From an uncultured Bacilli bacterium (GTDB lineage: Bacteria; Bacillota_I; Bacilli_A; RF39; UBA660), in assembly GCA_934086815.1 (NCBI GenBank), contig CAKOIM010000003.1:6805-70804 (forward strand): a DNA stretch of 64,000 nucleotides, given 5' to 3'. The position numbers and the translations under genes are program-made. Below are positions 2,939-25,194 of the stretch, in pieces. Within the stretch, counting starts at the first letter, position 1. Each line of letters opens with the position of its first letter. The notes under the pieces were generated by a model, which had not been told where the DNA came from, made no database searches, and saw only the letters and a program-made list of their open reading frames with translations.

Positions 2939-3003
2939 ATAACGCCTCCCTAAATAAGTCTATTATAACAAAAAAAGCTAGATAATAAAATCTAACTTTA
3001 TCA

Positions 3004-5277: not shown

Positions 5278-7036
5278 TTTCTAATTCCTCCTTTGATAAT
5301 TGTGACAAAGCAATTTCTTTATATACTTCACAACTTTTTAATAGTTCTTTATGAGTTCCCATTCCTACACATTCACCATTATCTAAAACAAGTATTTTAT
5401 TAGCATTCATAATAGTTCCAATTCTTTGAGCCACAATTAAACTAGTTGCATCACTAGCATATTTTTTTAAATTCTTTCTTAATACAGCATCAGTCTTATA
5501 ATCTAACGCTGAAAACGAATCATCAAAAATAAATATTTCCGGATTCTTAGCAATTGCCCGAGCAATAGATAACCTTTGTTTTTGCCCTCCAGAAACATTC
5601 GTTCCCCCTTGAGCAATATGTGTTTCATACCCATCATCCATATTTAATATAAATTCTTGAGCTTGAGCAATTAAAGCCGCGGACTTAACCGTTTCATCCG
5701 TCTTTTCATTTTTACTTTCACCATATCTAATATTGTAATCTATCGTACCATCAAACATTACAGCTTTTTGTGAAACATATCCTATTTTTTTGTATAATGT
5801 TTCAAGTTTATAATCTTTAACATTAATTCCATCAACCAAAATTTCTCCTTCTGTTACATCATAAAATCTAACAATTAAATTTAGCAAAGTAGATTTACCA
5901 GAACCAGTCGAACCAATAAACGCAACAGTTTCTCCTTTATTAGCCTTAAATGATACATTTTTAATTAAATACTCTTCCGCATCCGGATATTTAAATGAAA
6001 CATTTCTAAACTCAACCGTACCTATTTCTTCGGTATTAATTTTTGCATATTTCCCATCTTTAACACTTATTTCCGTATCTAAAACCTCATTAATTCTATT
6101 CGCAGAAACTTGAGCTCTTGGTAAAATCATAAAAATCATCGCTAACATTAAGAAAGCCATAATAATTTGCATCGCATAACTTGAAAATACTACCATATCT
6201 CCAAATAATGCTATTTTATCAGCCATCATTGCTTCATTTATAAGTTTAGCACCAATAAAATAAATAGATAAAGTTAACATATACATTACTAAATACATTA
6301 CCGGTGACAATATTGACATAGTTTTTTGATTAAATAATTGTAAATTAGTTAAATCATTATTTACGTTTTCAAACTTATCTTGTTGGTAATCTTCAGCATT
6401 AAAAGCTCTCACAACTCTTATACCATTTAGATTTTCTCTTGTTACACCATTTAACTTATCTGTAAGCTTTTGGACAATTTTAAACTTTGGCATAACAAGC
6501 ATTACTAAAATACCAATAACACTTAGTAAAATAACAACAGCAACAGCTGTTACGGCGCTCCATTCCCAACTTTTATTTAATATCTTAGTAATAGCCCATA
6601 TCGCTGTAATCGGAGCTTTCAATAATAATTGTAAACCCATACCAATAAACATTTCTACTTGTGTTACATCATTTGTTGTTCTAGTAATTAAACTATTCGT
6701 AGAAAAATTTTTAATTTCACTCATAGATAGATTTTCTACCTTATTAAAGATTTTATTTCTTAATTTTTTTGAAAAACCAGCAGATAACTTAGCAATTATA
6801 AACCCTACAATAAATGCTCCAAGTAAACTTCCAAAAGCGCAAAGTAACATATATCCACCATTTTTCAAAATATCACTCATTTTACTACCCTCAGTTTCCA
6901 CTAAAACAGTAATTTGTGACATATAATCTGGCATTTTCAAATCTAACCAAACTTGCATAAATATCAATACTAAACTAATTCCAATAATTAACCAGTCTTT
7001 TTTTGTAAAATTCTTTATTAATTTTAACATAATCAT
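5270..7036 (-). CDS. ABC transporter ATP-binding/permease (heterodimer partner)
   Basis: GSTGSGKST, LSGGQKQRLSIARA, IFIFDDSFSALD; 8-bp overlap with the partner. Confidence 0.85.
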   Translation of the reverse strand: MIMLKLIKNFTKKDWLIIGISLVLIFMQVWLDLKMPDYMSQITVLVETEGSKMSDILKNGGYMLLCAFGSLLGAFIVGFIIAKLSAGFSKKLRNKIFNKVENLSMSEIKNFSTNSLITRTTNDVTQVEMFIGMGLQLLLKAPITAIWAITKILNKSWEWSAVTAVAVVILLSVIGILVMLVMPKFKIVQKLTDKLNGVTRENLNGIRVVRAFNAEDYQQDKFENVNNDLTNLQLFNQKTMSILSPVMYLVMYMLTLSIYFIGAKLINEAMMADKIALFGDMVVFSSYAMQIIMAFLMLAMIFMILPRAQVSANRINEVLDTEISVKDGKYAKINTEEIGTVEFRNVSFKYPDAEEYLIKNVSFKANKGETVAFIGSTGSGKSTLLNLIVRFYDVTEGEILVDGINVKDYKLETLYKKIGYVSQKAVMFDGTIDYNIRYGESKNEKTDETVKSAALIAQAQEFILNMDDGYETHIAQGGTNVSGGQKQRLSIARAIAKNPEIFIFDDSFSALDYKTDAVLRKNLKKYASDATSLIVAQRIGTIMNANKILVLDNGECVGMGTHKELLKSCEVYKEIALSQLSKEELENA

Positions 7037-7503
7037 TTCCCTTCTATATAATTTATTAAATTGTTTTGCATTTTATCAACAATATTATTAAACACTTTTA
7101 ATTCCTCATCACTTATATTTGTAAGTAATACTTTTTCTAATTCTAAAAACTTATCTTTTCCTTGCATAAATACATTATATGCATTTTCATTTAAGATAAT
7201 TTTTTTGCATCTTACATCATCATTACATATAACTCGTTTTATAATATCATTTCTTTCCATCGTATGTAATATTCCCGATACACTAGCGCGACTTATATTT
7301 AATACATTTTCTAAATCTTTTTGATATATATCTTCATTTTGATGAGTAAAAATATAATGCATTATTCGCATTTGACTAGGACTAGGTCCATGTAAAACTA
7401 CACATTTATCAACACTATTTATAAATTCCTTAGCAATTAATTTCTCTAAAGAATTTATTTTCCACAACACTCTACTTTCTTTCACTTTACCACCAGATAA
7501 CAA
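7033..7503 (-). CDS. MarR-family transcriptional regulator
   Basis: Winged-HTH segment LENVLNISRASVSGILHTMERNDIIKR; 4-bp overlap with the ABC operon. Confidence 0.75.
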   Translation of the reverse strand: MLSGGKVKESRVLWKINSLEKLIAKEFINSVDKCVVLHGPSPSQMRIMHYIFTHQNEDIYQKDLENVLNISRASVSGILHTMERNDIIKRVICNDDVRCKKIILNENAYNVFMQGKDKFLELEKVLLTNISDEELKVFNNIVDKMQNNLINYIEGK

Positions 7504-7552
7504 TATTACAACATATAACTAATATTGTCAAGCGCCTTACAATTATTTTTAA

Positions 7553-7580
7553 TTGACTTTTTTTAAAAAAAGAATATAAT
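7553..7580 (+). promoter_or_regulatory. Sigma-A-type promoter for the 7608 gene: TTGACT-16 nt-TATAAT, followed by RBS GGGAGG
   Basis: -35 at 7553-7558, -10 at 7575-7580. GGGAGG lies 7 nt upstream of the ATG at 7608. Confidence 0.5.
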
Positions 7581-7607
7581 AAAGTCATTGACAAAAGGGA
7601 GGAAAAT

Positions 7608-8171
7608 ATGGAAAATTATTGTAGCACATGTGTTCACTTAACTAGCGATAAAGACTGGTGGGGAGACTATTATTGTAATTATAGACAAAAATATATTAGT
7701 TCAAACAATAAAGCCTGTGAAAATTACACAAAAAAACCAGACCAAGGATATAGGCGCGCCGGTTGTTTTATTACAACTATAGTTTGTAAATTATTAGGAA
7801 TGCCTGATGACTGTGAAGTTTTAACAGCTTTAAGAGATTTTCGTGAAAATTATTTAAAAAATACTGAAGAAGGAAAAAACCTTTTAATAGTGTATGATGT
7901 AAAAGGGCCAATTATTAGTGATTGCTTAAATAATGAAAAACCAGATCTTGCAAAAAAAATAGCCAATGAAATTTTTGAAATATATTTAGAGCCATGCGTT
8001 TCAGCTTTTAAAGAAAAGGAGTATTCCAAAGCAATTAAAACGTACATAAAACTATTTATTAGATTAGAATATAGATATAAAGAATACTTAGATGGCTTAG
8101 AAATAGACTACTCTAAACCAAGAGATATAAATACTTTAGGAAAAGGCAGAATAAAACCAAGTAGAATTTAA
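7608..8171 (+). CDS. Hypothetical cysteine-rich protein (CxxC...C...C N-terminus; conserved AGCFITTIVCKLLGMPDDCEVLTALRDFRE block)
   Basis: ORF with consensus promoter, RBS and terminator. No family confidently recognised. Confidence 0.5.
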   Translation: MENYCSTCVHLTSDKDWWGDYYCNYRQKYISSNNKACENYTKKPDQGYRRAGCFITTIVCKLLGMPDDCEVLTALRDFRENYLKNTEEGKNLLIVYDVKGPIISDCLNNEKPDLAKKIANEIFEIYLEPCVSAFKEKEYSKAIKTYIKLFIRLEYRYKEYLDGLEIDYSKPRDINTLGKGRIKPSRI

Positions 8172-8190
8172 CCTACTCGGTTTTTTATTT
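8157..8190. terminator. Bidirectional rho-independent terminator between convergent genes
   Basis: Stem CCAAGTAG/CTACTCGG with loop AATTTAA. T-run follows on + (8181-8186) and T-rich run on -. Confidence 0.5.
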
Positions 8191-8646
8191 ACTTACATCA
8201 ATCCAATCTTCAAAGTTTGTTATATTTTCAAGTTCATCTATACTCAATTTAATAGCACTGTTATGACTTCCACAAGCCGGGTATACTATATCGTGTTCTT
8301 TTAATGATTTATCTAAATAAACTAAGACACCCTCATTTAATCCAAATGGGCACACACCTCCAGCTTCATGACCTATAATTTCTGCCAATTTATCATAAGG
8401 TACCATTTTAGCTTTTTCATGAAAATAATCTTTATATTTACGATTATCTATTTTTTTATCTCCAGCTACAACTATAACAATTGGTATATTATTAACAATA
8501 AATGATAACGTTTTGGCAATGCTTGCCTCATCACATCCTATCGCTTGCGCAGCTTCACTAACTGTTGCACTTGAAACCCCGAACTCCATTATATCATTTT
8601 CTCTTCCATATTTTTTCATATATTCTCTTACTTTATCTATTGCCAT
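8185..8646 (-). CDS. ybaK: YbaK/ProX-type aminoacyl-tRNA deacylase domain protein
   Basis: MAIDKVREYMKKYG...GHEAGGVCPFG...; family-typical size and motifs. Confidence 0.7.
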   Translation of the reverse strand: MAIDKVREYMKKYGRENDIMEFGVSSATVSEAAQAIGCDEASIAKTLSFIVNNIPIVIVVAGDKKIDNRKYKDYFHEKAKMVPYDKLAEIIGHEAGGVCPFGLNEGVLVYLDKSLKEHDIVYPACGSHNSAIKLSIDELENITNFEDWIDVSK

Positions 8647-9235
8647 TTTCTACCTCCACAACTTTTGTCCCAGCTATTATATCATGTATAGCGCGACTAT
8701 CTTTTCTAAATATAAATACTAAAAAGTTACTATACAAAAACATGTATCCAATAATATTAATTGCAATAGAACTTATTAAAAATACTTTACTACTTAAAAT
8801 AAAGGCTAAAACAATTATTAAAATAGTTACAAACAAATTATATAAAAAAATCGTTCTTAAAACATACCTATAAATACTTGGACTCTTTTCTTCTTTATCA
8901 ACAACTTTTAAACCAAATATTTTCTTACCTAAAGATTGATCTTTATTCCATTTTTGAAAACCTACAAAATAAAGTAAATAACAAATCATTGACATAACAC
9001 TTACGAAACTACCATATTTTATAACATTTTGATAAGAAATTAAATAATCTTGATTCTTATAAATATCACTTACATTATCAACATTAGTGTTGTCCATTAC
9101 ATCTTGATATACCTCATAATTATCTAAATATTTATCATAATAAGGATTAATTACTTTAATTTGTGAAAACATAATAACTAATACACTTATAAAAAAATAA
9201 TCAATTAAATATGCACCAATTCTTTTATACTTCAT
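8633..9235 (-). CDS. RDD-family membrane protein
   Basis: N-terminal RIGAYLIDYFFISVLV plus three TM helices. Confidence 0.6.
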   Translation of the reverse strand: MKYKRIGAYLIDYFFISVLVIMFSQIKVINPYYDKYLDNYEVYQDVMDNTNVDNVSDIYKNQDYLISYQNVIKYGSFVSVMSMICYLLYFVGFQKWNKDQSLGKKIFGLKVVDKEEKSPSIYRYVLRTIFLYNLFVTILIIVLAFILSSKVFLISSIAINIIGYMFLYSNFLVFIFRKDSRAIHDIIAGTKVVEVENGNR

Positions 9236-9282
9236 ATTCCACCTCTTCTTAATTATACAAAAAACTTCAAAAAAAGCAAACC

Positions 9283-10389
9283 CTATGTAGTTTGCTTATT
9301 TGTTCCTAATTTAACTGTTATATCTTGTTTTTTTCCATCTCTAAATATTGTTAATTTAATCTCATCATTTATATTATTTTGATATAAATAATATCTTAAG
9401 TAAGCAACATTTTTAACTTCTTCTCCATTAATATTTGTAATAATATCATTTGATTTTAAACCTGCTTTACTAGCCGGAGAACCCTTTTCTACATCCACTA
9501 CAATAACACCACTTGAAAGATTTGATTCTTTAATTAAATCATAATATTGATATGAATAATAAGCTTTTGATAAATCTAACATAGATATACCTATATAAGG
9601 ATAATTTGCAGTTTCTCCTTTTATAATTTGTTCCGCTTTCTTTATTGCATTTTCAATAGGAATAGCAAAACCCATACCTTCAACACCACTACTAACAAGT
9701 TTTAATGATGTTATACCAATTACTTCTCCATTTGAATTACATAAAGGACCTCCACTATTTCCAGAGTTTATTGCAGCATCCGTTTGTAAAACTTTCATAA
9801 CATAATCATTTTGACTTGATTTATCCAAAGATACTTCAACCATTCTATCTTTTCCAGAAACAATACCTCTAGTAACTGTCCAAGAATATGCACTATCAAG
9901 AGGTGCTCCAACTGCAAATGCGGTATCCCCTACGCGAGTACTTTCACTTTTACCAATAGGTGCAATTTTTACATCTTCTTTAGTTTCTAAAGATAATACA
10001 GCTATATCAGCATATTGATCAGACCCAACAACTTTCGTTTCTAAAACTTTACCATCTGTAAAAGTAACAGTAACTTTATTACCACCATCTATAACATGAT
10101 GATTAGTCAAAATATAATACTTATTATCTTCTTTTTGATACACAAAACCTGTACCTGATGCGGAATAAACATTATCCTTGTATGTAGAAACTATTACAAC
10201 TGAATCATAAACTTTTTCTACCGCATCAGCTATACCAGTATCAGTAACTGTAACGTCCTTTTCTAATTTAGTTACATTTTCAGTGATAGATGTCGGAAAA
10301 AAATATACAACCGCATACATAATCAACGCCCCGATGAATAACACCATTATATAACTAACTATATTCTTTTTATTATTTATTTCATTCAT
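9283..10389 (-). CDS. htrA: Trypsin-like serine protease HtrA/DegP with C-terminal PDZ domain
   Basis: N-terminal TM anchor; catalytic triad context HHVIDG..., DIAVL, GNSGGPL; PDZ C-terminus. Confidence 0.85.
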   Translation of the reverse strand: MNEINNKKNIVSYIMVLFIGALIMYAVVYFFPTSITENVTKLEKDVTVTDTGIADAVEKVYDSVVIVSTYKDNVYSASGTGFVYQKEDNKYYILTNHHVIDGGNKVTVTFTDGKVLETKVVGSDQYADIAVLSLETKEDVKIAPIGKSESTRVGDTAFAVGAPLDSAYSWTVTRGIVSGKDRMVEVSLDKSSQNDYVMKVLQTDAAINSGNSGGPLCNSNGEVIGITSLKLVSSGVEGMGFAIPIENAIKKAEQIIKGETANYPYIGISMLDLSKAYYSYQYYDLIKESNLSSGVIVVDVEKGSPASKAGLKSNDIITNINGEEVKNVAYLRYYLYQNNINDEIKLTIFRDGKKQDITVKLGTNKQTT

Positions 10390-11321
10390 TTTTCTAACCT
10401 CACTATTTCTTTGTAATTATTTGGAAATCCCATTTCATGTAAAACCTTATCAATATTTATAACTTCTAATTTCCCAGCTAATAAGTCAAATTCATAACTA
10501 ATCTCACTTATAAACAACTGGAAATTTCTTGAATCAAGAAGTTGTTTTAATATAATAATTAATGCAAACAAATCATTTTTACCATAAACATAAAAATCAT
10601 CTTGCTTAGGAATATATAACTGTTGATGAAATTTAGTATCGTCAATATTTTTTTGTGTTCTATTTAAATAACAAATATCCTCATGAGCACAAAGATTTCG
10701 ATAATTAGCTACAATTGGTAAATAAGAAATCATATTTTGAACACTAATTTCAAATATATCAGCTATTTCTTTTTGGTCTTGATACTGTAATATAGTATAT
10801 AATTCTCCGACTATCCCAAAAGATAAAACTTTCACAACAACCCAAAGTGGTATATATCCATAATTTATTAAGTAATGCGCTGTTGCAGTGTGTTGTTTTC
10901 CATTAACACTTATTTGTCTTTTCATCTTTTTTATTAAATCGTTAATTTGTCTATTTTTACGAGAATCCTTCACAAAATTGTGGGGATTTAAATAATTATT
11001 TTCCTTAAACCCATGATTTTTACTCATTACATATGCTAAAATACTTTTTAAATTATTTTCAACTATTAATAAGTTTTTAAATATTATATTTCTTAACTTT
11101 CTATCAAAAGAAAACATAGCATATAACTCTTCAAATTTTGTTCCTTCTAAATACTTTCTATTATTAAAAGGATCCAAAAATAAATGACGGTAACCACTTA
11201 GAAAGAAATAATTTTCTCTTAAAAGCGTAGTTTTAGCACTCTCTATATCGCTAATGATAAGCCCTTTACTTGCAAGTATGTCAATTTGTTCATCTAATGT
11301 TTTAAATGTCTTTGTTTTCAC
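10386..11321 (-). CDS. Abi_2-family abortive-infection protein (AbiD/AbiF-like)
   Basis: N-terminus KTFKTLDEQIDILASKGLIISDIESAKTTLLRENYFFLSGYRHLF matches the Abi_2 family signature. GTG start; stop overlaps the htrA start (ATGA). Confidence 0.65.
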   Translation of the reverse strand: MKTKTFKTLDEQIDILASKGLIISDIESAKTTLLRENYFFLSGYRHLFLDPFNNRKYLEGTKFEELYAMFSFDRKLRNIIFKNLLIVENNLKSILAYVMSKNHGFKENNYLNPHNFVKDSRKNRQINDLIKKMKRQISVNGKQHTATAHYLINYGYIPLWVVVKVLSFGIVGELYTILQYQDQKEIADIFEISVQNMISYLPIVANYRNLCAHEDICYLNRTQKNIDDTKFHQQLYIPKQDDFYVYGKNDLFALIIILKQLLDSRNFQLFISEISYEFDLLAGKLEVINIDKVLHEMGFPNNYKEIVRLEK

Positions 11322-11420: not shown

Positions 11421-11964
11421 TTAAATATAATAATCACTTAATGCTTCGGCTATAGCCTGAGCAATTTCTTCTTGATATTTTTTTGTGACTAACTTTTCCC
11501 TTTCATTTTTATTTGATAAAAAACCACACTCAATTAGTATTCCCTTTTTATTAAGTTTATTATACATATATGTAGATGTAGGTATTTTTTTAATTTCTCT
11601 ATCCCCATTTAATTTCTTATTCAAGTGATTTTGAACAAAGTGAGCTAAATTCTTATTTTCTTTATTATAAAATACTTGAGGTCCATAATATTTAGTGTCC
11701 AATAAAAAATTCAAATGAATTGATAAATATAAATTTGTTTTTTCTTGATTTATAATTTTTATCCTTTCATCAAAATCAGCTTTTTTACGATGATTTTTAA
11801 CTCCTTTACTTAAATCTTTATCACTATCCCGAGTTAAAATAACAGTCGCACCCATCTGGCTTAAAATTTTTTCTAAATACAAGCTTATATTTAAAGTTAT
11901 ATCTTTTTCATAAATATCTTTATAAATAGCTCCAGGATCTAGTCCTCCATGTGGAGGACTCTGT
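11421..11964 (-). pseudogene. cwlD: N-acetylmuramoyl-L-alanine amidase (Amidase_3, CwlD-like), 3' fragment lacking a start codon; truncated by the element insertion
   Basis: The reading frame opens directly after a TAA (11965-11967): QSPPHGGLDPGAIYKDIYEKDITLNISLYLEKILSQMGATVILTRD...ECGFLSN.... The gene-derived part ends at the 9-bp core 11944-11952. Confidence 0.8.
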
Positions 11965-11978
11965 TAAATCCAAACTTT

Positions 11979-12812
11979 TTATTTCATTTCTATTTTTTCT
12001 TGTCTTTTCTGTTCTTTTTCTAATTCTTTTAAAGACTTTTTAGGTGTAGGTAAATCTTCAGGCATGACACCTCCAAGTCTTTTAATAGTATTTCTAACTT
12101 CTTGACCTACTTCATAATGCGTTTCTTTTGCTTTACTTTCACCTTGTATATTATCTCTTTTCAATTTTTGTTCAGTTTGTGAAATTCTAAATAGATTAGC
12201 AATTAATTCATCACTACCCATATTGTCTAAAATATCTTCTCTATATCTTAAACCTTTTCTTTTAGCAATATCATCGGCTGTTTCACCATTATATAACCCT
12301 TTATAACCAGCATTATGAAATTGATCAAAGTTTTTAACACCTGCTTTTCTAGCTGCTTGGTTTAGAGAATAGTTTCCTTTTTTGGTTAAACTTCTTTGAT
12401 AAAATCTTTTTTCGTCTTCAGTTAACATAGAATACTCTTTTTCAGTTAATTCCTGACGTCTTGTTTGTACTGCAAAGTAAGTTTGACCTAGTGCAACAAC
12501 TTCTTTTCTAGGATCTGAATTTTGTACTATCAAATAGCATATATACCTTGATAGTTTATAATCTTGTATATTAGCAGTTGCATTATTGTTTCTTTTTGAC
12601 AACTTGTTGACCTCAACAAGTTGTTCTTCTACATTATATCCTGAATTTATACAAGCCTCTTTTGCTTTGTTTAAAACTTTTAAAAAATTTCTCCAATCTC
12701 TATATTCTAAAACTTTTGCAAGTTCTCTAGCTAACCAATACTCATTACCATAATCATCAATATGTTTAATACCTTCAAATATTATTTCATTATATTCTTT
12801 AATTTCGTTCAT
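11979..12812 (-). CDS. DinD-like DNA-damage-inducible protein (Bro-N-related) plus basic C-terminal tail
   Basis: N-terminus NEYWLARELAKVLEYRDWRNFLKVLNKAKEAC resembles the DinD family. Confidence 0.5.
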   Translation of the reverse strand: MNEIKEYNEIIFEGIKHIDDYGNEYWLARELAKVLEYRDWRNFLKVLNKAKEACINSGYNVEEQLVEVNKLSKRNNNATANIQDYKLSRYICYLIVQNSDPRKEVVALGQTYFAVQTRRQELTEKEYSMLTEDEKRFYQRSLTKKGNYSLNQAARKAGVKNFDQFHNAGYKGLYNGETADDIAKRKGLRYREDILDNMGSDELIANLFRISQTEQKLKRDNIQGESKAKETHYEVGQEVRNTIKRLGGVMPEDLPTPKKSLKELEKEQKRQEKIEMK

Positions 12813-12872
12813 CCATTAACTCCTATTTTTCTGTATTTCTCATTTTGTAGAAAAGTCCAAATCACTGCTTTA

Positions 12873-14492
12873 TTAAAATTCAAAATTCCATTCTATTTCA
12901 ATATCTCGTGTTTTTGTAATTTTATCATAATTTCCAATATAAATTTTATCAATAAATTCATCAATTATTACTTTATTAAGTTCTTTAATGTGTTTATATT
13001 TTTTTAATATTTTATCAGTCTCTTTTTTGTCATCTGCGAGTTTTTTTAAATTTTCTATTTCAATATCAATTAATTCTATTCTTTTCATCATATTTTCAAT
13101 TTCACTAAAATACTCTTTTGACATAAACCGAAACATTTCCTCTTCTATAACACCATTAACTTTTTCTTCAAAAAGATTTCGATAATAATTTTTATTACTT
13201 TCTACTCTCTTTGTAAGATTTTCTTTTTCTTTAATTAATAAATTTATCTTTATCTCATTATCAAAATTATTTTTATCTTTTTGTTGATAGAGTTCTTTTA
13301 AGTTATTTTGATCATAATAATTATTTAGTAAATCATTGATAGCATTAAGTAAAATAGTTTCTAATTCATCTATTCTAATCGCTTTATTATTATCGCATAT
13401 GTGATATTTCTTTGCTCCCTTACACTGCAAGTATGCCCTTTTACCATCGTGAGCATTATATACATTTCTCATAAAAGATTTATTACAACAACTACAATAC
13501 ACTTTTCTACTTAAATAATGTACTTCACCACTTTTAATAGGTCTACTATGTGTTCCTAATATTTTCTGCACTTTATTCCATGTTTCCATGTCAATTATAG
13601 CTTCGTGTGAATTTTCTATTCTACACCAATCACTTTCTGGTACTTTTTTAAATTTGTGCACCTTGTATCCTAATGATGCTTTTTTTCCTTGAACTAAATT
13701 ACCAATATATGCCTCATTTCTTAGTATCTGTGCGATTGTATCAGGGCTCCACCTAACTGTATTTAAATCACAACTTGAGCAAACATACTTGCTACCTTTT
13801 TGTTTTTTATAAACAGACCTAGGTGGTATATTATTATTGTTTAGATATTCACAAATTTTGTGATAACCATAACCATTTGCATACATTTCAAATATTTTTC
13901 TAACAACTTCAGCAGCAACTGGGTCAATAACTAACTTATGTTTATCTTCTGCATATTTTTCATAACCATAAGGAGCAAAACTTCCCATAAACAAACCATC
14001 TTCTCGTTTATTTTTTAAAGACTTTTTGATATTCGTTGACAAATCATCTAAATACCATTCATTAATAAGTCCATTTATTTGTCTTGATTTCTTATTAGAC
14101 TCAATACTTGTATCAGCATTATCAACAATACTTACAAATCGAACTTGCCATTCTATGAACTTATTGTGTAAATATCTTTCAATAACTTCCATATCTCTTG
14201 AAAATCTTGATTGACTTTTGCATAAAACTAAATTAATTTTCCCACTTTCACAATCTTTGATAAGTCTTTCAAAGTCAGGTCTATAAGTCCCTGCGCCTGA
14301 AAAGTCATCATCAGAATAAATATCTACAACATTCCATCCACATTGACTTGCATATTTTAAACACATACTTCTTTGGTTTATTATACTATTACTATCATCA
14401 TTTTTATTTATTTTATCTCTATCTTCATCAGATAACCTACAATATACACCTACCTTTTCTATCATAGCCATTCCTCCAATATATAAGAACAA
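12873..14492 (-). CDS. Large serine recombinase (resolvase catalytic domain + recombinase domain + zinc ribbon + coiled coil)
   Basis: N-terminus VGVYCRLSDEDRD...QRS (resolvase); central Cys cluster CSSC...CSCC...C; long C-terminal coiled coil; 539 aa. Confidence 0.85.
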   Translation of the reverse strand: MFLYIGGMAMIEKVGVYCRLSDEDRDKINKNDDSNSIINQRSMCLKYASQCGWNVVDIYSDDDFSGAGTYRPDFERLIKDCESGKINLVLCKSQSRFSRDMEVIERYLHNKFIEWQVRFVSIVDNADTSIESNKKSRQINGLINEWYLDDLSTNIKKSLKNKREDGLFMGSFAPYGYEKYAEDKHKLVIDPVAAEVVRKIFEMYANGYGYHKICEYLNNNNIPPRSVYKKQKGSKYVCSSCDLNTVRWSPDTIAQILRNEAYIGNLVQGKKASLGYKVHKFKKVPESDWCRIENSHEAIIDMETWNKVQKILGTHSRPIKSGEVHYLSRKVYCSCCNKSFMRNVYNAHDGKRAYLQCKGAKKYHICDNNKAIRIDELETILLNAINDLLNNYYDQNNLKELYQQKDKNNFDNEIKINLLIKEKENLTKRVESNKNYYRNLFEEKVNGVIEEEMFRFMSKEYFSEIENMMKRIELIDIEIENLKKLADDKKETDKILKKYKHIKELNKVIIDEFIDKIYIGNYDKITKTRDIEIEWNFEF

Positions 14493-14532
14493 CTATAAAT
14501 ATTTGTAAATACAAGTATATTATAAACCAAAC

Positions 14533-14676
14533 TCACGAATTATTTAACCTTAATTCTTGACTTTCTAGTTTTAATATAATATTTAACAATTTTTTATTAA
14601 ATAACTCCTTTAATTCTTTATTAGTTTTATTATCATTGTTCTTAAATTTATATTTTACTTTATATACTACCTCCAT
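14533..14676 (-). CDS. Small basic ORF (47 aa, not in the ORF track) between recombinase and HTH gene; possible excisionase/RDF or regulator
   Basis: ATG at 14674-14676 preceded by GGGGGA RBS (7-nt spacing): MEVVYKVKYKFKNNDNKTNKELKELFNKKLLNIILKLESQELRLNNS. Confidence 0.3.
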   Translation of the reverse strand: MEVVYKVKYKFKNNDNKTNKELKELFNKKLLNIILKLESQELRLNNS

Positions 14677-14743
14677 ATTCTAATCCCCCTTTTTCTCATA
14701 TTTTATAAATAGATTCCTCCTATCGTATAACGTCGTCTCCTTT

Positions 14744-15337
14744 CTAACTAAATTCTTTTAACATATCTTTCATTACTGCAATTTCTTCTGGATTTGCTGG
14801 TGTTGATTTACAAACTTCAGGATGTTCCATCCAATAAGGAACTTTTCCTTCCTTTTTAAACTTTTTAAATTTATTATTATATTTATTTTTATAATTATTA
14901 TTTATATTATGGTCGCAATCTATTGCACTCTCACTACTGCAATCTGTTGCACTATCATCTGCAACCTTTGTCGGTATCTTTTCTTTATTAAGATATATTC
15001 TTCTTTGTCCATCAACTTTTTTTACAAAGACATATTTTAATTCTTTGAACTTAGACAATGAATAACTAATAGTTCTTTCTGAAGTATTAATACAGTCTGC
15101 TAAATATTTATTAGTTGCAAAGCAATAAGCTCTTTTTAAGGTAAGTGAAATAATAAGACTTAATAGATCTGTATCAGTTCTTGTTAAGTTCTTATCATTA
15201 AATAATATTCTAGGTTTTATGATAAAATCACAATCTAATTTATTAATATTATTCTCCTTTAAAATAAGTAAAGACTTTTCACTCTTCCCAAATTTGACAA
15301 TAATAATTCTAAGAGGATTTTTTACATCTATTCTCAA
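14744..15337 (-). CDS. HTH-domain protein, putative replication initiator/regulator of the element
   Basis: Winged-helix-like segment NTSERTISYSLSKFKELKYVFVKK; Cys/acidic linker; basic C-terminus. Confidence 0.4.
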   Translation of the reverse strand: MRIDVKNPLRIIIVKFGKSEKSLLILKENNINKLDCDFIIKPRILFNDKNLTRTDTDLLSLIISLTLKRAYCFATNKYLADCINTSERTISYSLSKFKELKYVFVKKVDGQRRIYLNKEKIPTKVADDSATDCSSESAIDCDHNINNNYKNKYNNKFKKFKKEGKVPYWMEHPEVCKSTPANPEEIAVMKDMLKEFS

Positions 15338-15435
15338 AGATATTATTTTGATTTATTCTATATATCTTATAGAAAAGGTACTAACATAAATCTCCGAACA
15401 TTTACTGTACCTTATTTGTTAGCGATAATTCAATT

Positions 15436-15702
15436 CTAACAAATTGCAAACTCATATAATCCTGTATCATATTCTCTAAACTTAATATAGTTGTATTTTT
15501 CTAATTGTTTCAAGTTTTTTCTAAATGCGATATTTTTTATACTCTTAACTTCTTTTTTTACTCTACCAATATTGATATTTGATATAGTTTTATCAAATCC
15601 TTCTGAATATAGATAAGCAAATATTTCTTTTGTTTCAGGTTTGATATTTTTATCTTTCCATATCATATGGTCTGTTATATCTAGTTGTTTTCTTTTAGAC
15701 AT
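15436..15702 (-). CDS. Hypothetical small protein (88 aa) in element
   Basis: ORF only. Confidence 0.35.
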   Translation of the reverse strand: MSKRKQLDITDHMIWKDKNIKPETKEIFAYLYSEGFDKTISNINIGRVKKEVKSIKNIAFRKNLKQLEKYNYIKFREYDTGLYEFAIC

Positions 15703-16014
15703 TCATTTTCTCCAATTTAAATAATAACATTAACGATGGAAATTTATCAGAAGAAGATAAAGAGACGGCTCTTGAAACTATACAAGATTTAGAATACCAA
15801 AATACAACTAACAAACTCATTATAGAAATATTAGATAATACAAGATATAAGGAGGCGAAGAATAATGCAAAAAATAAAAAAGGCAACATTATACTTACAT
15901 TAGTTTGCATTATGTTGCTTATGGAGTTTCAAAAGGGTTCTCCCTTTGCACGCTATTCCTAGTTGACTTGTCCAACTTAGTAGTATGTTACTATCTTGTC
16001 TAAAAGATAGTTTA

Positions 16015-16644
16015 TTAATTGTCATTATGATATAAGTATTCATCAGGAACATCTGGATAACCTGATATATAAAAATTAAAAATATCATTTAAAATTTGGA
16101 TACATATACCGTAACTCTTGTCATCTATTAGATTTTGATTTAAATATTTACTATTTAATTCATTTCTTATTTCGTTATATAAATATTCATATTCATTAGA
16201 ATCTATATTTTTTATTTTTCTTATTGTATTAGTAAGTTCTGAAATCTTATCAATTTCTAGATTTATCCTATTATCAACTGTTTTTTCTATTTCTTCTAAT
16301 AGTTCATATAATGATAGTGCTAAATAATAAGATGTACAATCTTCATTAGAAGATTTTTCATATCTAACTAAATAGTTTTTCAGTTCATTTATTGTATAAT
16401 CTAATATATTATTTTCTTTTAAGAACGAACAACAAGAAGAATCTAAGATATATCCTTTCAAAGAAATTTTGTTCAATTTAATTGTTTTTTCTATTTGATA
16501 CATATTTTCAGATAATTCAACAAGTTCATTTGCCTTAGTTATAAATTGAAACATTTTATTATTTATAGAATCATGAATTTTATTTATATCCATGAATGCT
16601 TCTAAAATTCTTACACTATAATTATTATCCATATAAGACTCCAA
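16015..16644 (-). CDS. Hypothetical protein (209 aa), downstream partner in a two-gene cargo module
   Basis: The stop of the 716-aa gene (16646) abuts this start (16644). No recognisable motif. Confidence 0.5.
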   Translation of the reverse strand: MESYMDNNYSVRILEAFMDINKIHDSINNKMFQFITKANELVELSENMYQIEKTIKLNKISLKGYILDSSCCSFLKENNILDYTINELKNYLVRYEKSSNEDCTSYYLALSLYELLEEIEKTVDNRINLEIDKISELTNTIRKIKNIDSNEYEYLYNEIRNELNSKYLNQNLIDDKSYGICIQILNDIFNFYISGYPDVPDEYLYHNDN

Positions 16645-16645
16645 T

Positions 16646-18796
16646 CTATTTTAAAATATTATATATGATCATAAATATCGCACCAGCAATAAAACCTGTA
16701 ATTAATGTTAATGTTAATATATTGGCAAAGCCACTAGAGAAACCACCATTACCACCATTTGAACCTTTACTTAATGTTTTGACTTTAGGCTTTTCCTTGC
16801 TTTTTTGCTGTTCTTTTTGTTGTTTAATAATCATATTTCTTTGTTTTATTTGTTGTGCTATTTGAATTTCAGAAGCACTTCTTTTTGTAAAACTTACAGA
16901 TTTAACTTCAGGACCTCTAATAATTTTTGTTTGAGAAACATTTTCCTGAAATTGTTTCTTATTTTCTTTCTCAACTTTACTTTTCCAATTATTGAAATCA
17001 GTAATATCCTTGTTTATTCTTTGACTATTATCTTTTCTAGCCATTTCACTGATTCTTGTATACTTTCCCATGTATGCCTCTTTTGTTATCTGCTTATCTT
17101 TAAAATAATCACCTGAAATGTTATCAATTACTGTCCATTCACATTCCCTTTTAAATGGAACATCATCAAATATTTCATTATGCTTATTCTGTAATAATTG
17201 TTTATATTTTAATATATCATCTTTAGATTTTCCTTGCTGTTCCATATTCCTAACTTCTTCTTTAGATAAATATAAATCTCTTTCACTACATTCCAATTTA
17301 AGTTTTATATCTTTTCCATCCAATGTTTTTCCAATAACAATTTGTGACATTTGTTTGTCAAATTCAGCAGTTTCCTTCAATTGTTCAATTTTTTCTGGTG
17401 TATAATCAGAACTAAATGTATGATCTTGATCACCAAATACTGTAATCAATCCTGGTGCAAGTCTTTGTAATTCGTTCATAGCTTCCATTACTTTTGCTCT
17501 TTTTTCCGGAGCTTCTTGAAGCATTGTTTCATTATACATAAAATCAACATTTTTATTTTTTAATTCCTGTATTAATTGCATATTAGGTCCAATAACTTGT
17601 TTAACCATATCTTCTAGTGTAATCCCAAACTTTTCTTCCCATACTAATTTAAAGTTTTTATCTGCTTTTTTGATTTCAACTAACTCATTAAACAATTCAA
17701 AAGATCGATTTTTTCCATCATTTTTAATATTAGAATTAAAATTTATTAAAGATGAATTTAATGAGTTTCTTAATATTTGGATAACTAATTCTTTATCTTT
17801 TGATGATAATCCTTTTTTTGATATTTCTTCTGCTGCATTTCTATTAATCATACTCCTTAATCTATAAGAAGCACCTAATTTTTCTGAGAGATTTTGACCC
17901 ATAGAACTTATATCGTAATTATAGACATATTCAATTGAATTATTATCATTTAATTTACTACTAACAGTATTTTCATAACCGATAGATCTTAGTACTAATT
18001 GAAAATCACCACCCATTGAATTACATTTTTTAATATTTTCTTTAATTTGGTTATTTAAAGCAACCATTTGTTCATAAGTAGAAGAATTAAAATTCTCATA
18101 GTCCGTTGTAAAGTAATAAACTATCTTTGAAGAAATTCTTTTTCCTGTTTCTCGCCCAAATTTATCAATACATATTCTTTCAATTTCTTTATACATAGAT
18201 GGTAATCCTTTAGAAAATCCAATATTTCCAATATCAAGTTCATTTTCAATTGAAAGATTAAGCCCACTTAGTTTTTTATGTAATGCATATCTCATTGCTT
18301 CTTCTTTGTTGCTAGAATTGATGTCATTTACCACTTGTGTGCTAATCATTGAATCCTCATATATTTCAAACAATTTTCTTTTAATAGAATCAATTTGTTC
18401 AGTTGAATAATTACCATTAGGTAATTGTGATATCATATATAAATTTGGAACAGAATCAATCCACTTATTAATTTCTGAAATATTAGAACAATTTATTAAA
18501 GATAGTGATGTAATCATCAAAGAAGATAAATACATTCCTTGATGATTAGTTTTTAACCCAGTATCTAACTCATTAGGATTTAATGAAAGATAGGTACTTT
18601 CCATTTTTTCTAACTCAAATGTTAATTCTTTATCAATATCTTCACTTGTTTTTCCACTATTTACATAAATTGCAATTGCCTTTTGTCTTAATTCTTCAGA
18701 TACTAAACCTGGATATTTTGAATTTGTAGCATCTATTTTTGAATTAATTAAATTTAGTAAATTCTGATAAGTATTTTCATTAGACATAAATATCAA
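16646..18796 (-). CDS. Hypothetical 716-aa protein with a single C-terminal TM helix preceded by a Gly-rich segment (tail-anchored); no recognisable catalytic motif
   Basis: C-terminus ...KGSNGGNGGFSSGFANILTLTLITGFIAGAIFMIIYNILK. The rest is hydrophilic and charged/coiled-coil rich. Confidence 0.6.
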   Translation of the reverse strand: MIFMSNENTYQNLLNLINSKIDATNSKYPGLVSEELRQKAIAIYVNSGKTSEDIDKELTFELEKMESTYLSLNPNELDTGLKTNHQGMYLSSLMITSLSLINCSNISEINKWIDSVPNLYMISQLPNGNYSTEQIDSIKRKLFEIYEDSMISTQVVNDINSSNKEEAMRYALHKKLSGLNLSIENELDIGNIGFSKGLPSMYKEIERICIDKFGRETGKRISSKIVYYFTTDYENFNSSTYEQMVALNNQIKENIKKCNSMGGDFQLVLRSIGYENTVSSKLNDNNSIEYVYNYDISSMGQNLSEKLGASYRLRSMINRNAAEEISKKGLSSKDKELVIQILRNSLNSSLINFNSNIKNDGKNRSFELFNELVEIKKADKNFKLVWEEKFGITLEDMVKQVIGPNMQLIQELKNKNVDFMYNETMLQEAPEKRAKVMEAMNELQRLAPGLITVFGDQDHTFSSDYTPEKIEQLKETAEFDKQMSQIVIGKTLDGKDIKLKLECSERDLYLSKEEVRNMEQQGKSKDDILKYKQLLQNKHNEIFDDVPFKRECEWTVIDNISGDYFKDKQITKEAYMGKYTRISEMARKDNSQRINKDITDFNNWKSKVEKENKKQFQENVSQTKIIRGPEVKSVSFTKRSASEIQIAQQIKQRNMIIKQQKEQQKSKEKPKVKTLSKGSNGGNGGFSSGFANILTLTLITGFIAGAIFMIIYNILK

Positions 18797-19266
18797 CTTC
18801 CTTTTAAAGATCTATCTTATATGAATATTATATCATTTATTTATTCTTTTTTTAAATTTTTATTGCTATGATTAAAATTATTTTTATCTACATATATCCA
18901 AGTCATCTGTCTTATCATAATTAGAAACAGCTTTGACTTTTTCCTTGTAATAATTTGGTGCATTAACATAGTTAAATAATTCATCTTGTTTAGTAGTACC
19001 TCGTGATATTTTAATAACATCTTCCATATCAAAATCTTCATTATCATAATAATTTTTTACTTCAATAGTAGTTTCATCTTTTGCATATTCATTACCAAAT
19101 TGTAATATCTATCTAAAGAACTTTTTAATTTCCTCCAATATAACATCAATATAATTTTTTAATTTGTTATTTTCGACTGTTAAATTTTGATTTCTAGTAA
19201 CAAGTGATTTCACTTCTCGTTTAAGGTTACTATTTTCCTTTTCTTCGTACTTCAATCCAGAAAAAT

Positions 19267-19797
19267 CTAAAATACATCAATTTTATGGCTACTGCTGATA
19301 TATTCATATATTTTTTCTTTTGTATTATCTAATTTTTCAGAGACAAATTTAGAAAACATTTTAATATTAAAATCTAATTCATCGGCATAATCTAATTCAC
19401 CCTTATTTATATATTCATATTTAAATATATTAGCAACTTTATCCATAATAGGTGACAACTCATATCTAATATTATTTGATAATTTATTTTTATAAAAATC
19501 TGTATTAAAAATATAAATAGGAACTCTTTTAGCAAAACAATATCCAATTTCAAATCCTACACCAGCGTCATAAGATAATCCATTAAGTCTAGTTATAAAT
19601 ACATCAGTATTATTTAAAGACTTCATATCTGCTTCAAATATATTTTTAGAAACATTACCTGCATCGCTAACCTTCAAATTACTATCTTTAAATGGTAAAT
19701 AAACATTGTCATTTCTAAATCTTTTGTTATTTAAAACACTATTATACATAACAACAGAAACTTGTCTATCAAAAAAGCTATACAATTTTATAGCCAA
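19267..19797 (-). CDS. Nucleoside 2-deoxyribosyltransferase-family protein. The start is ambiguous: TTG at 19797 or ATG at 19749.
   Basis: DAGVGFEIGYCFAKRVPIY matches the NDT D-x-G-x-x-FE-x-GY catalytic-Glu motif. Confidence 0.6.
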   Translation of the reverse strand: MAIKLYSFFDRQVSVVMYNSVLNNKRFRNDNVYLPFKDSNLKVSDAGNVSKNIFEADMKSLNNTDVFITRLNGLSYDAGVGFEIGYCFAKRVPIYIFNTDFYKNKLSNNIRYELSPIMDKVANIFKYEYINKGELDYADELDFNIKMFSKFVSEKLDNTKEKIYEYISSSHKIDVF

Positions 19798-19802
19798 ATA
19801 TA

Positions 19803-20117
19803 TTATTTTTCTTCATATTCCTTAACTCTTGTATTTACTCCATCAATTATTTTATATTCCCTATGTCTATTTTTATTTATTTTCTTTAAAATTTCACTTT
19901 CTAAATCAACATTTAAAATTTCAGATAATCCTAATAAGTAAATCACTACATCAGCGATTTCTTCACCAACATCATCTTTTTTCTTACGCCATGCTTCATA
20001 TGCCTCAGCCATTTCACCATATGTTAAACAAAACTCTTTATTAATATCTGTAACATTAAATCCTTTATCCAATTTATTTTGATAAACTTCTTTTTGCATT
20101 TGTTTTAAATCTATCAT
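19803..20117 (-). CDS. MazG-like nucleotide pyrophosphohydrolase (small, single-domain)
   Basis: EEIADVVIYLLGLSEIL...NRHREY matches the MazG/house-cleaning NTP-PPase helix pair. Confidence 0.65.
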   Translation of the reverse strand: MIDLKQMQKEVYQNKLDKGFNVTDINKEFCLTYGEMAEAYEAWRKKKDDVGEEIADVVIYLLGLSEILNVDLESEILKKINKNRHREYKIIDGVNTRVKEYEEK

Positions 20118-20118
20118 T

Positions 20119-20754
20119 TTATTCTTCCTCCAATACTTTATTTATTATTTTTCTTATTTCGAATATTCTTTTTTCCATAAATTCCGGATGATTTTTAAAC
20201 CATTTTATATTAAGTGGTGATGGATGTGGCAATACAATTGCTAATTTTCCATTAATATAAATCAAATTATTTTCATCAAGAATAGATAAATATGCATTTC
20301 TAACTTTTCCTAAACATTCAGGTGCCATCTTTATATTAAATTTTGTATTGGTATTTCTGTTAACAGATTCGTTTGATGTTATATCAATAAAAAATCCTAT
20401 ATCAGCTTTCGGGAAAACTGAATTAATATTAGTTACCCAATTTTTATCAACACCTTCCGCCATACGATAAGCAAGAGCGAATGGAACATATCTATCAAAC
20501 AACATTATTTTATTTTTTAAGTCTTTTTGAGTTATATTTTTCATTCTTATATATCTATCAGTTGCAAATAAATACGCTTTTAAAATTGAATCTAAAGTTC
20601 CTTCTTTCGCCATGTACTTTAGTTCTCAACCAATATTTGTTTCAAATTCTTTCGAGATTTCAAAATCTACATCTAATTCTAAATAATAATCTTTTCTTAT
20701 TTGCACCAATGCAGTTTTTCCACAATTATCTAATCCTTCAAAAATTACTAACAC
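20119..20754 (-). pseudogene. dNMP (thymidylate)-kinase-like gene interrupted by an in-frame TGA at 20626-20628 (codon 43). It is either a nonsense pseudogene or a recoded/readthrough gene.
   Basis: GTG start at 20752-20754 with GAGGTG RBS. N-terminal P-loop MLVIFEGLDNCGKTALV; then ...ETNIG-TGA-ELKYMAKEG...LFATDRY...DRYVPFALAYRMAEG (tmk DRY/lid regions) in the same frame, 211 codons in total. Confidence 0.6.
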
Positions 20755-20885
20755 ACTAATCACCTCATCTATGTTTATATTATAACATTGAACAAAAGAT
20801 TTTACAAAAAAGATACTTTCTTTAACAAAGTACCTTTATTACTTGTATTTACTTATCCTTATAACTATTCTTTTCATTTTTGGAT

Positions 20886-21023
20886 TTATCCTATTCCTCC
20901 ATGTCCAGCATCAACAATTATAATTTTTCCTTGCAAAGGTAAACTTGCCTTAACAGGAAAAATACTAAAAAGGCTAATAAGAACGCAAAAAGACAAAACC
21001 ATATTAATGTAATAATTTTTCAT
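20886..21023 (-). pseudogene. cwlD: N-acetylmuramoyl-L-alanine amidase (CwlD-like) 5' fragment: signal peptide + GKIIIVDAGHGG, running into element sequence (..IG*)
   Basis: Minus-strand ATG at 21021-21023: MKNYYINMVLSFCVLISLFSIFPVKASLPLQGKIIIVDAGHGG|IG*. The core repeat is at 20895-20903. Confidence 0.8.
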
Positions 21024-24334: not shown

Positions 24335-24754
24335 TTATCTCTTAGAGAATTGTGGAGCTCTACGAGCTTTTCTAAGACCATATTTTTTACGTTCTTTAAC
24401 TCTTGGATCTCTTGTAATAAATCCAGCATTTTTAAGAATATGTCTATAACTATCTTCTCTAGTTTGATCAGTATTAGCATCAAATTTTAATAATGCTCTA
24501 GTAATACCTAAACGTATAGCACCAGTTTGACCTGAAAAACCTCCACCGTTAACTTTAATGTCAATATCAAATCTATTTTCATTATTTGTTGCTACAAGTG
24601 GTTGTTTTAAATCCATTACTAAAGTAGCATATGGCATATATTCATTAACATCAACACCATTAACTGTAATATTACCAGTTCCACCTACTAATCTTACTTG
24701 TGCAACACTTCTTTTTCTTCTTCCAGTCGCAGTCCATTCTTGTTTCTTACTCAT
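24335..24754 (-). CDS. rpsI: 30S ribosomal protein S9
   Basis: [12 protein letters not shown]...[17 protein letters not shown]. Confidence 0.95.
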
Positions 24755-24762
24755 AATTCCTC

Positions 24763-25194
24763 CTATTTAATTTCCATAACCATTGGTTTTTGTGCTTCAT
24801 GTTTATGTTCAGCACCACTATAAACAAATAGTTTTTTACCCATAGCTCTTCCTAAACGATTGTGAGGAAGCATTCCTTTAACAGCTCTTTCTACCATTTC
24901 TTCTGGATATCTTTCGATCATAACTTTTGCAGTTCTTTCTCTTAATCCACCTGGATATCCACTATGATTGTAATACTTCTTATCTTCTAATTTATTACCA
25001 GTTAAAACAACTTTTGAAGCATTAACTATAATTACATAATCACCACAATCAACATGAGGAGTATAAGTAACTTTATGTTTCCCACGTAATACGTGAGCAG
25101 CTTGAGTAGCTATACGACCTAAAGTCTTTCCTTCAGCATCAATAACATACCATTTTCTTTCAATATTTTCTTTTTTTTGCATAAATGTTTTCAT
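24763..25194 (-). CDS. rplM: 50S ribosomal protein L13
   Basis: [27 protein letters not shown]... Confidence 0.95.

Follow-up and report, generated by a model that had tools for sequence, protein, structure and literature searches.

The window analysed here is a stretch of 64,000 nt from an uncultured Bacilli bacterium (assembly GCA_934086815.1, contig CAKOIM010000003.1, forward strand, positions 6,805–70,804; coordinates below are those of the window). On its minus strand lies a cwlD-like amidase gene that is interrupted at the codons for His41-Gly-Gly by an element of 8,952 bp, as measured between the crossover dinucleotides. The 5' fragment of the gene (20895–21023, minus strand) comprises 43 codons for a leader, a membrane anchor and the motif DAGHGG, after which the frame runs into element DNA (Ile-Gly, stop). 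Its translation (21023..20895), MKNYYINMVLSFCVLISLFSIFPVKASLPLQGKIIIVDAGHGG, starts with MKNYY and ends with IIIVDAGHGG before the IG-stop; the 5' piece as translated is 45 aa, and the fragment aligns with residues 1–43 of intact 216-aa homologues. The 3' fragment (11421–11951, minus strand) comprises 176 codons from His41 to the stop, and its translation (11951..11421) begins with HGGLDPGAIYKD and ends with SDYYI. The original prediction for this locus described the 3' fragment as a headless Amidase_3 body with a stop codon immediately upstream; the start codon is indeed missing, while the stop lies five codons upstream, with zero start codons between. The 3' piece has neither a start codon nor an export signal, and its first usable start is downstream of His41. 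Because the insertion parts the anchor and the residues preceding His41 from the remainder of the enzyme, neither fragment alone can make active CwlD, and cwlD function is possible only after the element excises itself.

Both junctions carry the direct repeat TCCTCCATGT (plus strand, 11943–11952 and 20895–20904), which had been reported as a 9-bp repeat and whose core is in fact 10 bp. The window holds no further copy; shuffled sequences lead to an expectation of 0.05 copies, and two copies were seen in 0 of 100 shuffles. In silico removal of one core copy and all DNA between the copies yields a continuous open reading frame (ORF) of 651 nt and 216 aa, the exact length of a spliced product first put at about 220 aa. 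The terminal inverted repeats TAAATCCA noted earlier are real and extend to TTTGGATTTA and TAAATCCAAA, and the 539-aa large serine recombinase (LSR) said to lie about 0.9 kb inside the left end is found 921 bp from it. The structural claim, namely a site-specific serine-recombinase insertion in a cwlD orthologue whose precise deletion restores the gene, is borne out by these features and by public assemblies, in which empty sites and the exact spliced protein are on record.

The exact spliced 216-aa protein is P0121. Two contigs encoding it, L085 and L086, provide the uninterrupted junction that the original prediction proposed to look for: their upstream flanks are 99.0–99.9% and their downstream flanks 100% identical to the window, and the two flank alignments meet exactly at the core. 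Besides L088 and L089, the occupied layout was found on 16 contigs that stem from several metagenomes of the human gut, Hadza samples among them. In the 90% protein cluster, five C-terminal fragments (called from Met73) occur on about 37 contigs and nine intact 216-aa alleles on about 24 contigs; the fragments were read as occupied alleles, which was confirmed for L079–L083 only. Two alleles have been seen in both states (P0124 = P0121 and P0127 = P0131). Occupied and empty cwlD (L085, L086) are 100% identical over 531 nt, making dN/dS uninformative and suggesting for the same reason that the occupied/empty polymorphism is recent or ongoing. The split gene is free of frameshifts and stops in each of 5 occupied alleles, as are the copies of cwlD in 5 further species. 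Since there are exact empty sites in the same species, and since a relative of the element is found in circularly permuted form with the predicted attachment site (contig L087, discussed below), the recombination appears to be both precise and reversible in nature.

The spliced protein has a hydrophobic N-terminus and a single Amidase_3 domain (Pfam, E = 1.7e-43, residues 35–212 of 216). Its best NCBIfam model is TIGR02883 spore_cwlD (190.2 bits, positions 1–189/189), with the next amidase model at 55.6 bits, and one fragment of the gene is annotated as CwlD by NCBI. More than 2,000 homologues were found; among the best 120 listed, most are 216 aa long, and the top homologues, 92% and 76% identical, pass over the junction and through the invariant GHGG-DPG motif with no gap, which is the alignment to intact CwlD that had been called for. 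In Bacillus and Clostridioides, cwlD is located near rplM-rpsI; in the window, rplM (24763–25194) and rpsI (24335–24754) lie on the same strand 3.3 kb upstream of cwlD, with three genes between. The spore-former context that had been claimed is also present, with yabG (281 bits against a cutoff of 270.4), yabP (88.4 against 75.4) and yabQ (35 against 32) all above their NCBIfam cutoffs, together with spoVG and a spoVT-like gene. We accept the split gene as a probable cwlD orthologue of a spore-former genotype, and the host would be, by genotype, an endospore former.

The attachment (att) sites of the element could be reconstructed from the two junctions. In gene orientation, attL (20878–20927, minus strand) joins, across the crossover CA (the complement of 20902–20903, within the core copy at 20895–20904), the host B arm GTTGATGCTGGA to the element P' arm TGGAGGAATAGGATAAATCCAAA, an arm that recurs in 9 other elements and in the attP of L087. 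In attR (11926–11975, minus strand), conversely, the element P arm TTTGGATTTAACAGAGTCCTCCA leads through the crossover CA (the complement of 11950–11951, within the core copy at 11943–11952) to the host B' arm TGGAGGACTAGATCC. The reconstructed attP is TTTGGATTTAACAGAGTCCTCCA-CA-TGGAGGAATAGGATAAATCCAAA, about 48 bp, and its arms are symmetric at 19/24 positions around the central non-palindromic CA (TG on the plus strand); the reconstructed attB is GTTGATGCTGGA-CA-TGGAGGACTAGATCCTGG, which contains the codons for V-D-A-G-H-G-G-L-D-P-G. Across 10 elements the attP arms are symmetric at 16–19/24 positions and the attB arms at 2–9/24, and the central CA is invariant. This layout conforms to textbook large-serine-recombinase geometry.

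The LSR gene itself (12873–14492, minus strand) is full length, encoding 539 aa from a TTG or 530 aa from an ATG, the latter being the start that gene callers use. Its product contains the Pfam domains Resolvase (3–143/145), Recombinase, Zn_ribbon_recom and DUF4368 and the catalytic motif YCRLS, matches a PHROG integrase family at 1e-107, and aligns end to end with relatives of 72–92% identity. Its best matches among solved structures (PDB) include the catalytic domains of TnpX and TP901-1, and its best named NCBIfam model is the XisF fdxN-element recombinase, at 103 bits against a cutoff of 375. Among annotated phage and plasmid records there were no relatives of the LSR above 38% amino acid identity, and the element DNA had no match in a plasmid collection.

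A scan of one genome per species showed that the element belongs to a widespread family. Recombinases 61–92% identical to the window LSR were found at 25 loci, in relatives from gut and rumen metagenome-assembled genomes (MAGs) labelled as uncultured Bacilli, Mollicutes, Tenericutes or Clostridiales. In 22 of the 25 (LSR 72–81% identical), each from a different species-representative genome, an arm homologous to the element arm of attR, TTGGAYTT...N...CA, directly abuts CAYGGNGG, the Amidase_3 His-Gly-Gly codons. Both element ends were located in nine relatives and the window, giving sizes of 6.0–11.3 kb. The interrupted genes fall into two classes. The first, found in the window and in L005, L016, L022, L024 and L028, is cwlD-like, with a signal anchor and TIGR02883 scores of 161–213 bits. 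The second, found at about 16 loci, is a leaderless Amidase_3 gene with four or five LysM repeats, 415–467 aa in length where reconstructable. DNA encoding DxGHGGxDPG is common to both. In a neighbour-joining tree of the LSRs the two target classes are intermixed (L005 with L006 and L007; L016 with L015 and L017; L028 with L008), and therefore one recombinase lineage uses both genes. The cultured gut isolate Candidatus Stoquefichus massiliensis AP9 (L031, NZ_HG005297.1, 3933–6093) carries a 543-aa LSR, only 36% identical to that of the window, which abuts a 3' fragment of cwlD at the HGG codons; the other end of this element is beyond the contig end.

The order of the core genes in the family is p88, p197, p47 and recombinase, followed at times by a DinD/Bro-N gene. 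Most relatives also have a divergent XRE/CI-like repressor gene facing a TTGACA-type promoter, and a full-length Mob_Pre (MobV) relaxase gene, as in L005, L011 and L020, with matches covering Pfam Mob_Pre 1–196/196. The cargo varies and includes genes for dTMP kinase, MazG, nucleoside deoxyribosyltransferase, PnuC, and PurA-like and NrtR-like proteins. Because a relaxase and associated genes are present, and phage structural genes were not found, we regard the family as integrative mobilizable elements with an LSR, a MobV relaxase and a strict target site.

No circular form of the window element itself was found in IMG/VR or the JGI metagenomes. A degenerate attP pattern likewise had no match in IMG/VR, and in the JGI metagenomes it matched a single contig, L087 (Ga0352976_1036818, 9,859 bp), which carries a relative. 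The gene order on this contig is the C-terminal end of p197, p47, recombinase, an intact attP, cargo, p88 and the N-terminal end of p197; amidase flanks are absent, and the contig ends lie about 22 nt apart on a reference p197 gene. It looks like the excised circle of a relative, for which a collapsed tandem array would look identical. Whether circle or array, such an arrangement would show that the recombination system is active in nature. The cargo of L087 includes a salvage module (2744–9395) with PnuC, NDT-like, PurA-like, NrtR-like, radical SAM and Ham1-like genes.

The genes of the window element can now be described in relation to this family. Between attR and the recombinase lies a gene for a DinD/Bro-N family protein (11979–12812, minus strand; NCBIfam DinD, 346 bits, cutoff 242), an optional module present in 7 relatives. 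Directly upstream of the recombinase, and preceded by a good Shine-Dalgarno sequence, is a 47-aa ORF, p47 (14533–14676, minus strand), which is kept in the same position at about 30 loci at 48–100% identity and a length of 39–48 aa. The core module is completed by p197 (14744–15337, minus strand), a replication-initiator or DnaD-like helix-turn-helix (HTH) protein that is conserved throughout the family and matches PHROG replication-initiation families (5e-12) and, weakly, HTH_36, and by p88 (15436–15702, minus strand), a small protein that is 42–89% identical in about 20 related elements and is always encoded upstream of p197. Further upstream are genes for a 209-aa protein with no assigned function (16015–16644, minus strand) and a 716-aa cargo protein with a C-terminal hydrophobic anchor (16646–18796, minus strand), the latter with no match in Pfam, NCBIfam or PHROGs. 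The 716-aa protein has a Gly-rich tail, and a 63%-identical partial copy adjoins the LSR gene in L009.

The region 18890–19243 (minus strand) was identified by tblastn as the remnant of a MobV (Mob_Pre) relaxase gene, of which only the C-terminal ~117 aa are left (60% identity to residues 309–424 of the L011 relaxase and 44% identity to that of L020). A reading of this region as adenylosuccinate synthetase, after the PurA-like protein of L087, was ruled out, as its full-length homologues are Mob_Pre proteins and unlike the L087 protein. It is followed towards attL by three cargo genes, a nucleoside 2-deoxyribosyltransferase-like gene (19267–19797, minus strand) and a MazG-like pyrophosphatase gene (19803–20117, minus strand), both from library matches, and a thymidylate-kinase-like gene, tmk (20119–20754, minus strand), with Pfam and NCBIfam dTMP kinase matches. 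The tmk gene has a single in-frame TGA (20626–20628, minus strand), which is also present in L079, L088 and L089 from other samples, and it is likely a pseudogene; the gene caller of one source read through this codon. Genetic code 4 was considered as an explanation of the TGA and ruled out for the host: it uses TGG, its long ORFs are unbroken under code 11, and 5 of 39 long ORFs terminate in TGA. Of the repressor, no more than a marginal trace is left in the window copy. With its LSR, p47, p197, p88 and the att sites at both ends still intact, this copy is a degraded and probably non-mobilizable derivative of the family. Pfam and PHROG matches of the element are limited to integrase, replication-initiator, nucleotide-metabolism and Bro-N/DinD families; no phage structural, packaging or lysis genes were found in it with these libraries, and a prophage or satellite origin was ruled out on this ground. 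All credible genes of the element are co-oriented with cwlD, and no intrinsic terminators were predicted on either strand between 11300 and 21200, the 9.9 kb that hold the element and the cwlD fragments.

On balance, we lean towards the view that the element is excised within the mother cell in the course of sporulation, restoring cwlD. The LSR recombined the attP of the element with a chromosomal attB, the DNA for the Amidase_3 catalytic motif of cwlD, D-A-G-H-G-G-L-D-P-G. During sporulation the LSR and a directionality factor, for which p47 is the best candidate, would then excise the element in the terminally differentiated mother cell and so restore cwlD where its CATA-type (sigma-E/K-like) promoter would be active, and the forespore chromosome would retain the element and transmit it. 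The logic would be that of skin, SPbeta, vfbin and gin. Large-serine-recombinase elements in sporulation genes studied so far all excise during sporulation (PMC4191935, PMC5595907, PMC5025042, PMC10747680), and the decay of transfer genes alongside a kept recombination module is the pattern of domesticated elements such as skin. The cwlD gene is under mother-cell control by sigma-E in C. difficile and is a cortex gene of the sigma-E regulon in B. subtilis (PMC6021603, PMC3789822, PMC517825). In C. difficile, sigma-E and sigma-K promoters have a common -10 element and differ at -35, ATA versus AC (PMC3789822). Upstream of the window cwlD there is a CATA-type -10, CATAAAAT, 14 nt before the ATG; similar motifs precede yabG (CATATAGT, at 11 nt) and yabP (CATATAAT, at 22 nt before the start), and a CATA-type motif at -45 to -5 occurs in 5 of 69 window ORFs of at least 100 aa. 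All 6 cwlD genes examined (the window and 5 relatives) have CATAnnnT 13–24 nt upstream, and cwlD of this organism is probably expressed in the mother cell. For the second target, the LysM amidase, 5 of 6 genes are preceded by AC-N16-CATAnnnTA, a motif whose background frequency is 0.075 per kb and which fits a putative late mother-cell, CwlC-like lytic enzyme. As a side observation, the CATA-type -10 boxes of cwlD (start 21023) and yabG (start 45283) end a few bases before the start codons, and both genes are without a Shine-Dalgarno sequence; their mRNAs may be leaderless.

How the timing of excision would be set is a separate matter. Read-through from the cwlD promoter is conceivable because the genes are co-oriented and no terminator is predicted. 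In a stronger form of this idea, the family would be specialised on the DxGHGGxDPG DNA of mother-cell amidases, so that a single recombinase lineage could hop between two developmental genes, and sigma-E/K read-through from cwlD or the other target into p47 and the LSR would time excision. The polarity of the att sites would force each copy into co-orientation with its target, the broken gene would drive its own repair, and a dedicated sporulation promoter on the element would not be required. We consider this form unlikely.

Several observations weigh against developmental excision. The regions upstream of p47 and of the LSR yielded no conserved sigma-E/K-type motif, and the promoter-like site upstream of the LSR, TTAAAT-17-TATAAT, is conserved and sigma-A-like. 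The sole recurrent sigma-K-like motif, AC-N16/17-CATAnnnTA, is oriented as the recombinase and lies inside the first codons of p88 (window, L011, L015, L020 and L025), where it may be an internal promoter or a coding constraint of ..LDI(T/S)(D/N)H.I..; a generic sigma-70 scan of the element, which gave fewer sites than shuffles, was uninformative. The CATA and AC motifs upstream of the amidase genes overlap possible sigma-A promoter forms. As to the parts of the system, the spliced protein misses the equivalog cutoff of TIGR02883 (221.55 bits), a second cwlD may exist elsewhere in the genome, beyond the 64-kb window, and p47 owes its candidacy as a recombination directionality factor solely to where it lies and how well it is conserved. 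In the family at large, target choice appears to track a conserved DNA motif and not gene function, excision may be tied primarily to horizontal transfer given the CI-like repressor and MobV relaxase, and six LysM-amidase genes that contain a second insertion are possibly dead. Much of this would be expected if the insertion were an ordinary one, by a mobilizable element that plays no part in development, with the Amidase_3 motif as a reliable landing site only. Carriers would then be cwlD-null or use another amidase, excision would be sporadic or transfer-triggered, and empty sites would represent naive or cured strains. The family is built as mobilizable elements are, with its relaxase, its repressor and a Rep-like protein; one LSR lineage uses two different genes, some of which have two insertions; and the identity of occupied and empty alleles is as expected of recent gain or loss. 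We regard an ordinary insertion as possible but doubtful. CwlD loss abolishes normal spore germination in model species (PMC6021603, PMC8496864), yet in the data examined occupied alleles are no rarer than empty ones (about 37 versus 24 contigs, a count inferred from cluster members). Moreover, the split gene has not decayed in the 5 occupied alleles and 5 other species, both target genes have mother-cell-type promoter motifs, and the window copy has lost relaxase and repressor but kept its recombination module, a combination difficult to account for were excision to serve transfer only.

A further alternative is a fixed relic. The window copy would be unable to excise and cwlD permanently off, with sporulation fading or rescued by a paralogue; the relaxase remnant, the loss of the repressor and the in-frame stop in tmk are in line with this, and only 64 kb of the genome are visible. 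This is improbable, because the LSR has its full length and can be aligned with its relatives from one end to the other, p47 is intact, the two att arms agree with the family consensus and with the L087 attP, 100%-identical empty sites exist with the same alleles in both states, and the host's yabG, yabP and yabQ remain intact. An assembly chimera or a mis-joined prophage was raised only because the source looks metagenome-assembled, and no support for it was found. The same junctions occur on 16 or more independent contigs from different samples and assemblers, a homologous junction occurs at 22 other loci of the genome collection, and phage structural genes are lacking; we count this explanation as refuted and its residual probability as negligible.

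Known gene-intervening elements close to the cwlD element include skin with SpoIVCA in sigK of B. subtilis, and skinCd with CD1231 and the recombination directionality factor CD1234 in sigK of C. difficile. In these too an LSR element lies inside a mother-cell sporulation gene, a short direct-repeat core is flanked by inverted arms, precise excision restores the ORF, and the element is defective, its propagation genes being gone and its recombinase kept. They differ in target, sigK as opposed to cwlD, and in origin, a prophage as opposed to a small element that was mobilizable and encoded both a relaxase and a Rep-like protein; the timing and the directionality factor of the cwlD element are, in addition, candidate or inferred only. 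The sigma-A-like promoter of the LSR suggests that this gene is expressed constitutively, as the sprA gene of SPbeta is. With SPbeta, which uses SprA and SprB in spsM of B. subtilis, the family shares a direction set by a separate small factor, a role proposed here for p47, as well as the existence of relatives that are still active and have a repressor-type switch of their own; such a switch could coexist with sporulation-triggered excision. SPbeta differs in being a 134-kb functional phage and in that a mother-cell promoter has been mapped for SprB (PMC4191935), whereas none was found upstream of p47 or the LSR.

The gin element, with GirC and GirX in gerE of B. cereus ATCC 10987, is similarly a non-viral element in a small sporulation gene, and its recombinase acts with an extra element-encoded factor, GirX (PMC5595907). 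It is larger, at 28.6 kb with three serine recombinases compared to 9 kb with one, and it differs from the window family in that the latter lands on a catalytic-motif sequence common to two paralogous genes. In architecture the family is also like Tn4451/Tn4453, and the likeness lies in small size (6–11 kb in the window family), an LSR with a Mob_Pre relaxase, and a circular form, of which L087 is the putative example in the window family. Tn4451 and Tn4453 are small Firmicute elements that encode the large serine recombinase TnpX and the Mob/Pre relaxase TnpZ, carry catP and have a circular form, and TnpX inserts them at many loosely defined sites. The window family, in contrast, has one strict site, CAYGGNGG in DxGHGGxDPG codons, and its cargo is for nucleotide salvage or defence; the relaxase of the window copy has, in addition, been lost. 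XisF of heterocystous cyanobacteria embodies the same concept, a serine recombinase by which a gene is made whole in cells that have terminally differentiated. It is not an orthologue by the NCBIfam scores given above, and it acts in another phylum, on another target gene and element type.

Sporulation genes so far reported to carry recombinase elements are sigK, spsM, spoVFB, spoVR, gerE and yabG (PMC4191935, PMC5595907, PMC10747680). In full-text literature searches, neither cwlD nor any other Amidase_3 gene turned up as a target of this kind, and cwlD is not mentioned in a survey of regulated gene integrity (PMC7192596). In mechanism, a gene-intervening element with a large serine recombinase is of a known kind. 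The novelty lies in the target gene, the mobilizable-element origin, the use of one catalytic-motif sequence in two paralogous amidases, and the breadth of the family in uncultured gut Bacillota. The cwlD gene would be the first cortex-modification gene among recombinase-interrupted sporulation genes. Insertions of this kind are common among uncultured gut and rumen Bacillota of very high AT content, which makes them relevant to how gut commensals are transmitted as spores; should excision not be developmental, they would amount to a widespread natural knockout of a gene needed for germination. A non-phage family beside a degraded copy that keeps only its recombination module may also serve as a model for the origin of skin-like domesticated elements. 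Recombinase engineering could profit from a natural LSR whose attP and attB are defined, which comes in about 25 sequence variants and for which a 47-aa protein is the candidate directionality factor, and L031, as a cultured gut isolate, is a possible experimental system.

A number of minor observations concern the relatives and the neighbourhood of cwlD. The 311-aa gene between cwlD and htrA (10386–11321, minus strand) has a precomputed Pfam match to Abi_2 (abortive infection) and is syntenic with cwlD in several related species; it lies close downstream of cwlD in L005, L024 and L028, as in the window, and farther away in L016, and it is followed by HtrA in L005 and L024. Both empty-site contigs end at its start. 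L020 carries a CBASS-like pair (3338–5715), a DncV-like nucleotidyltransferase with an SUa-2TM effector, and the cwlD-borne element of L028 contains a sigma-70-family gene (7864–8523). The second break in the Amidase_3-LysM target occurs at six loci after NHINAGGG(D/E), at about residue 95, and is followed by unrelated DNA (L006 at ~11919, L015 at ~11910, L019 at ~10879, L007 at ~7391, L012 at ~7563 and L021 at ~11895). It looks like an insertion hot spot of another element in the same gene, and downstream of the break in L015 there are a DinD-like gene and a second Rep-like gene. Finally, in L014 the recombinase element sits in a neighbouring Amidase_3 gene, and the uninterrupted cwlD (544–1177) is seemingly frameshifted, with two tblastn pieces in different frames; the frameshift may be a MAG error or may mark a pseudogene.

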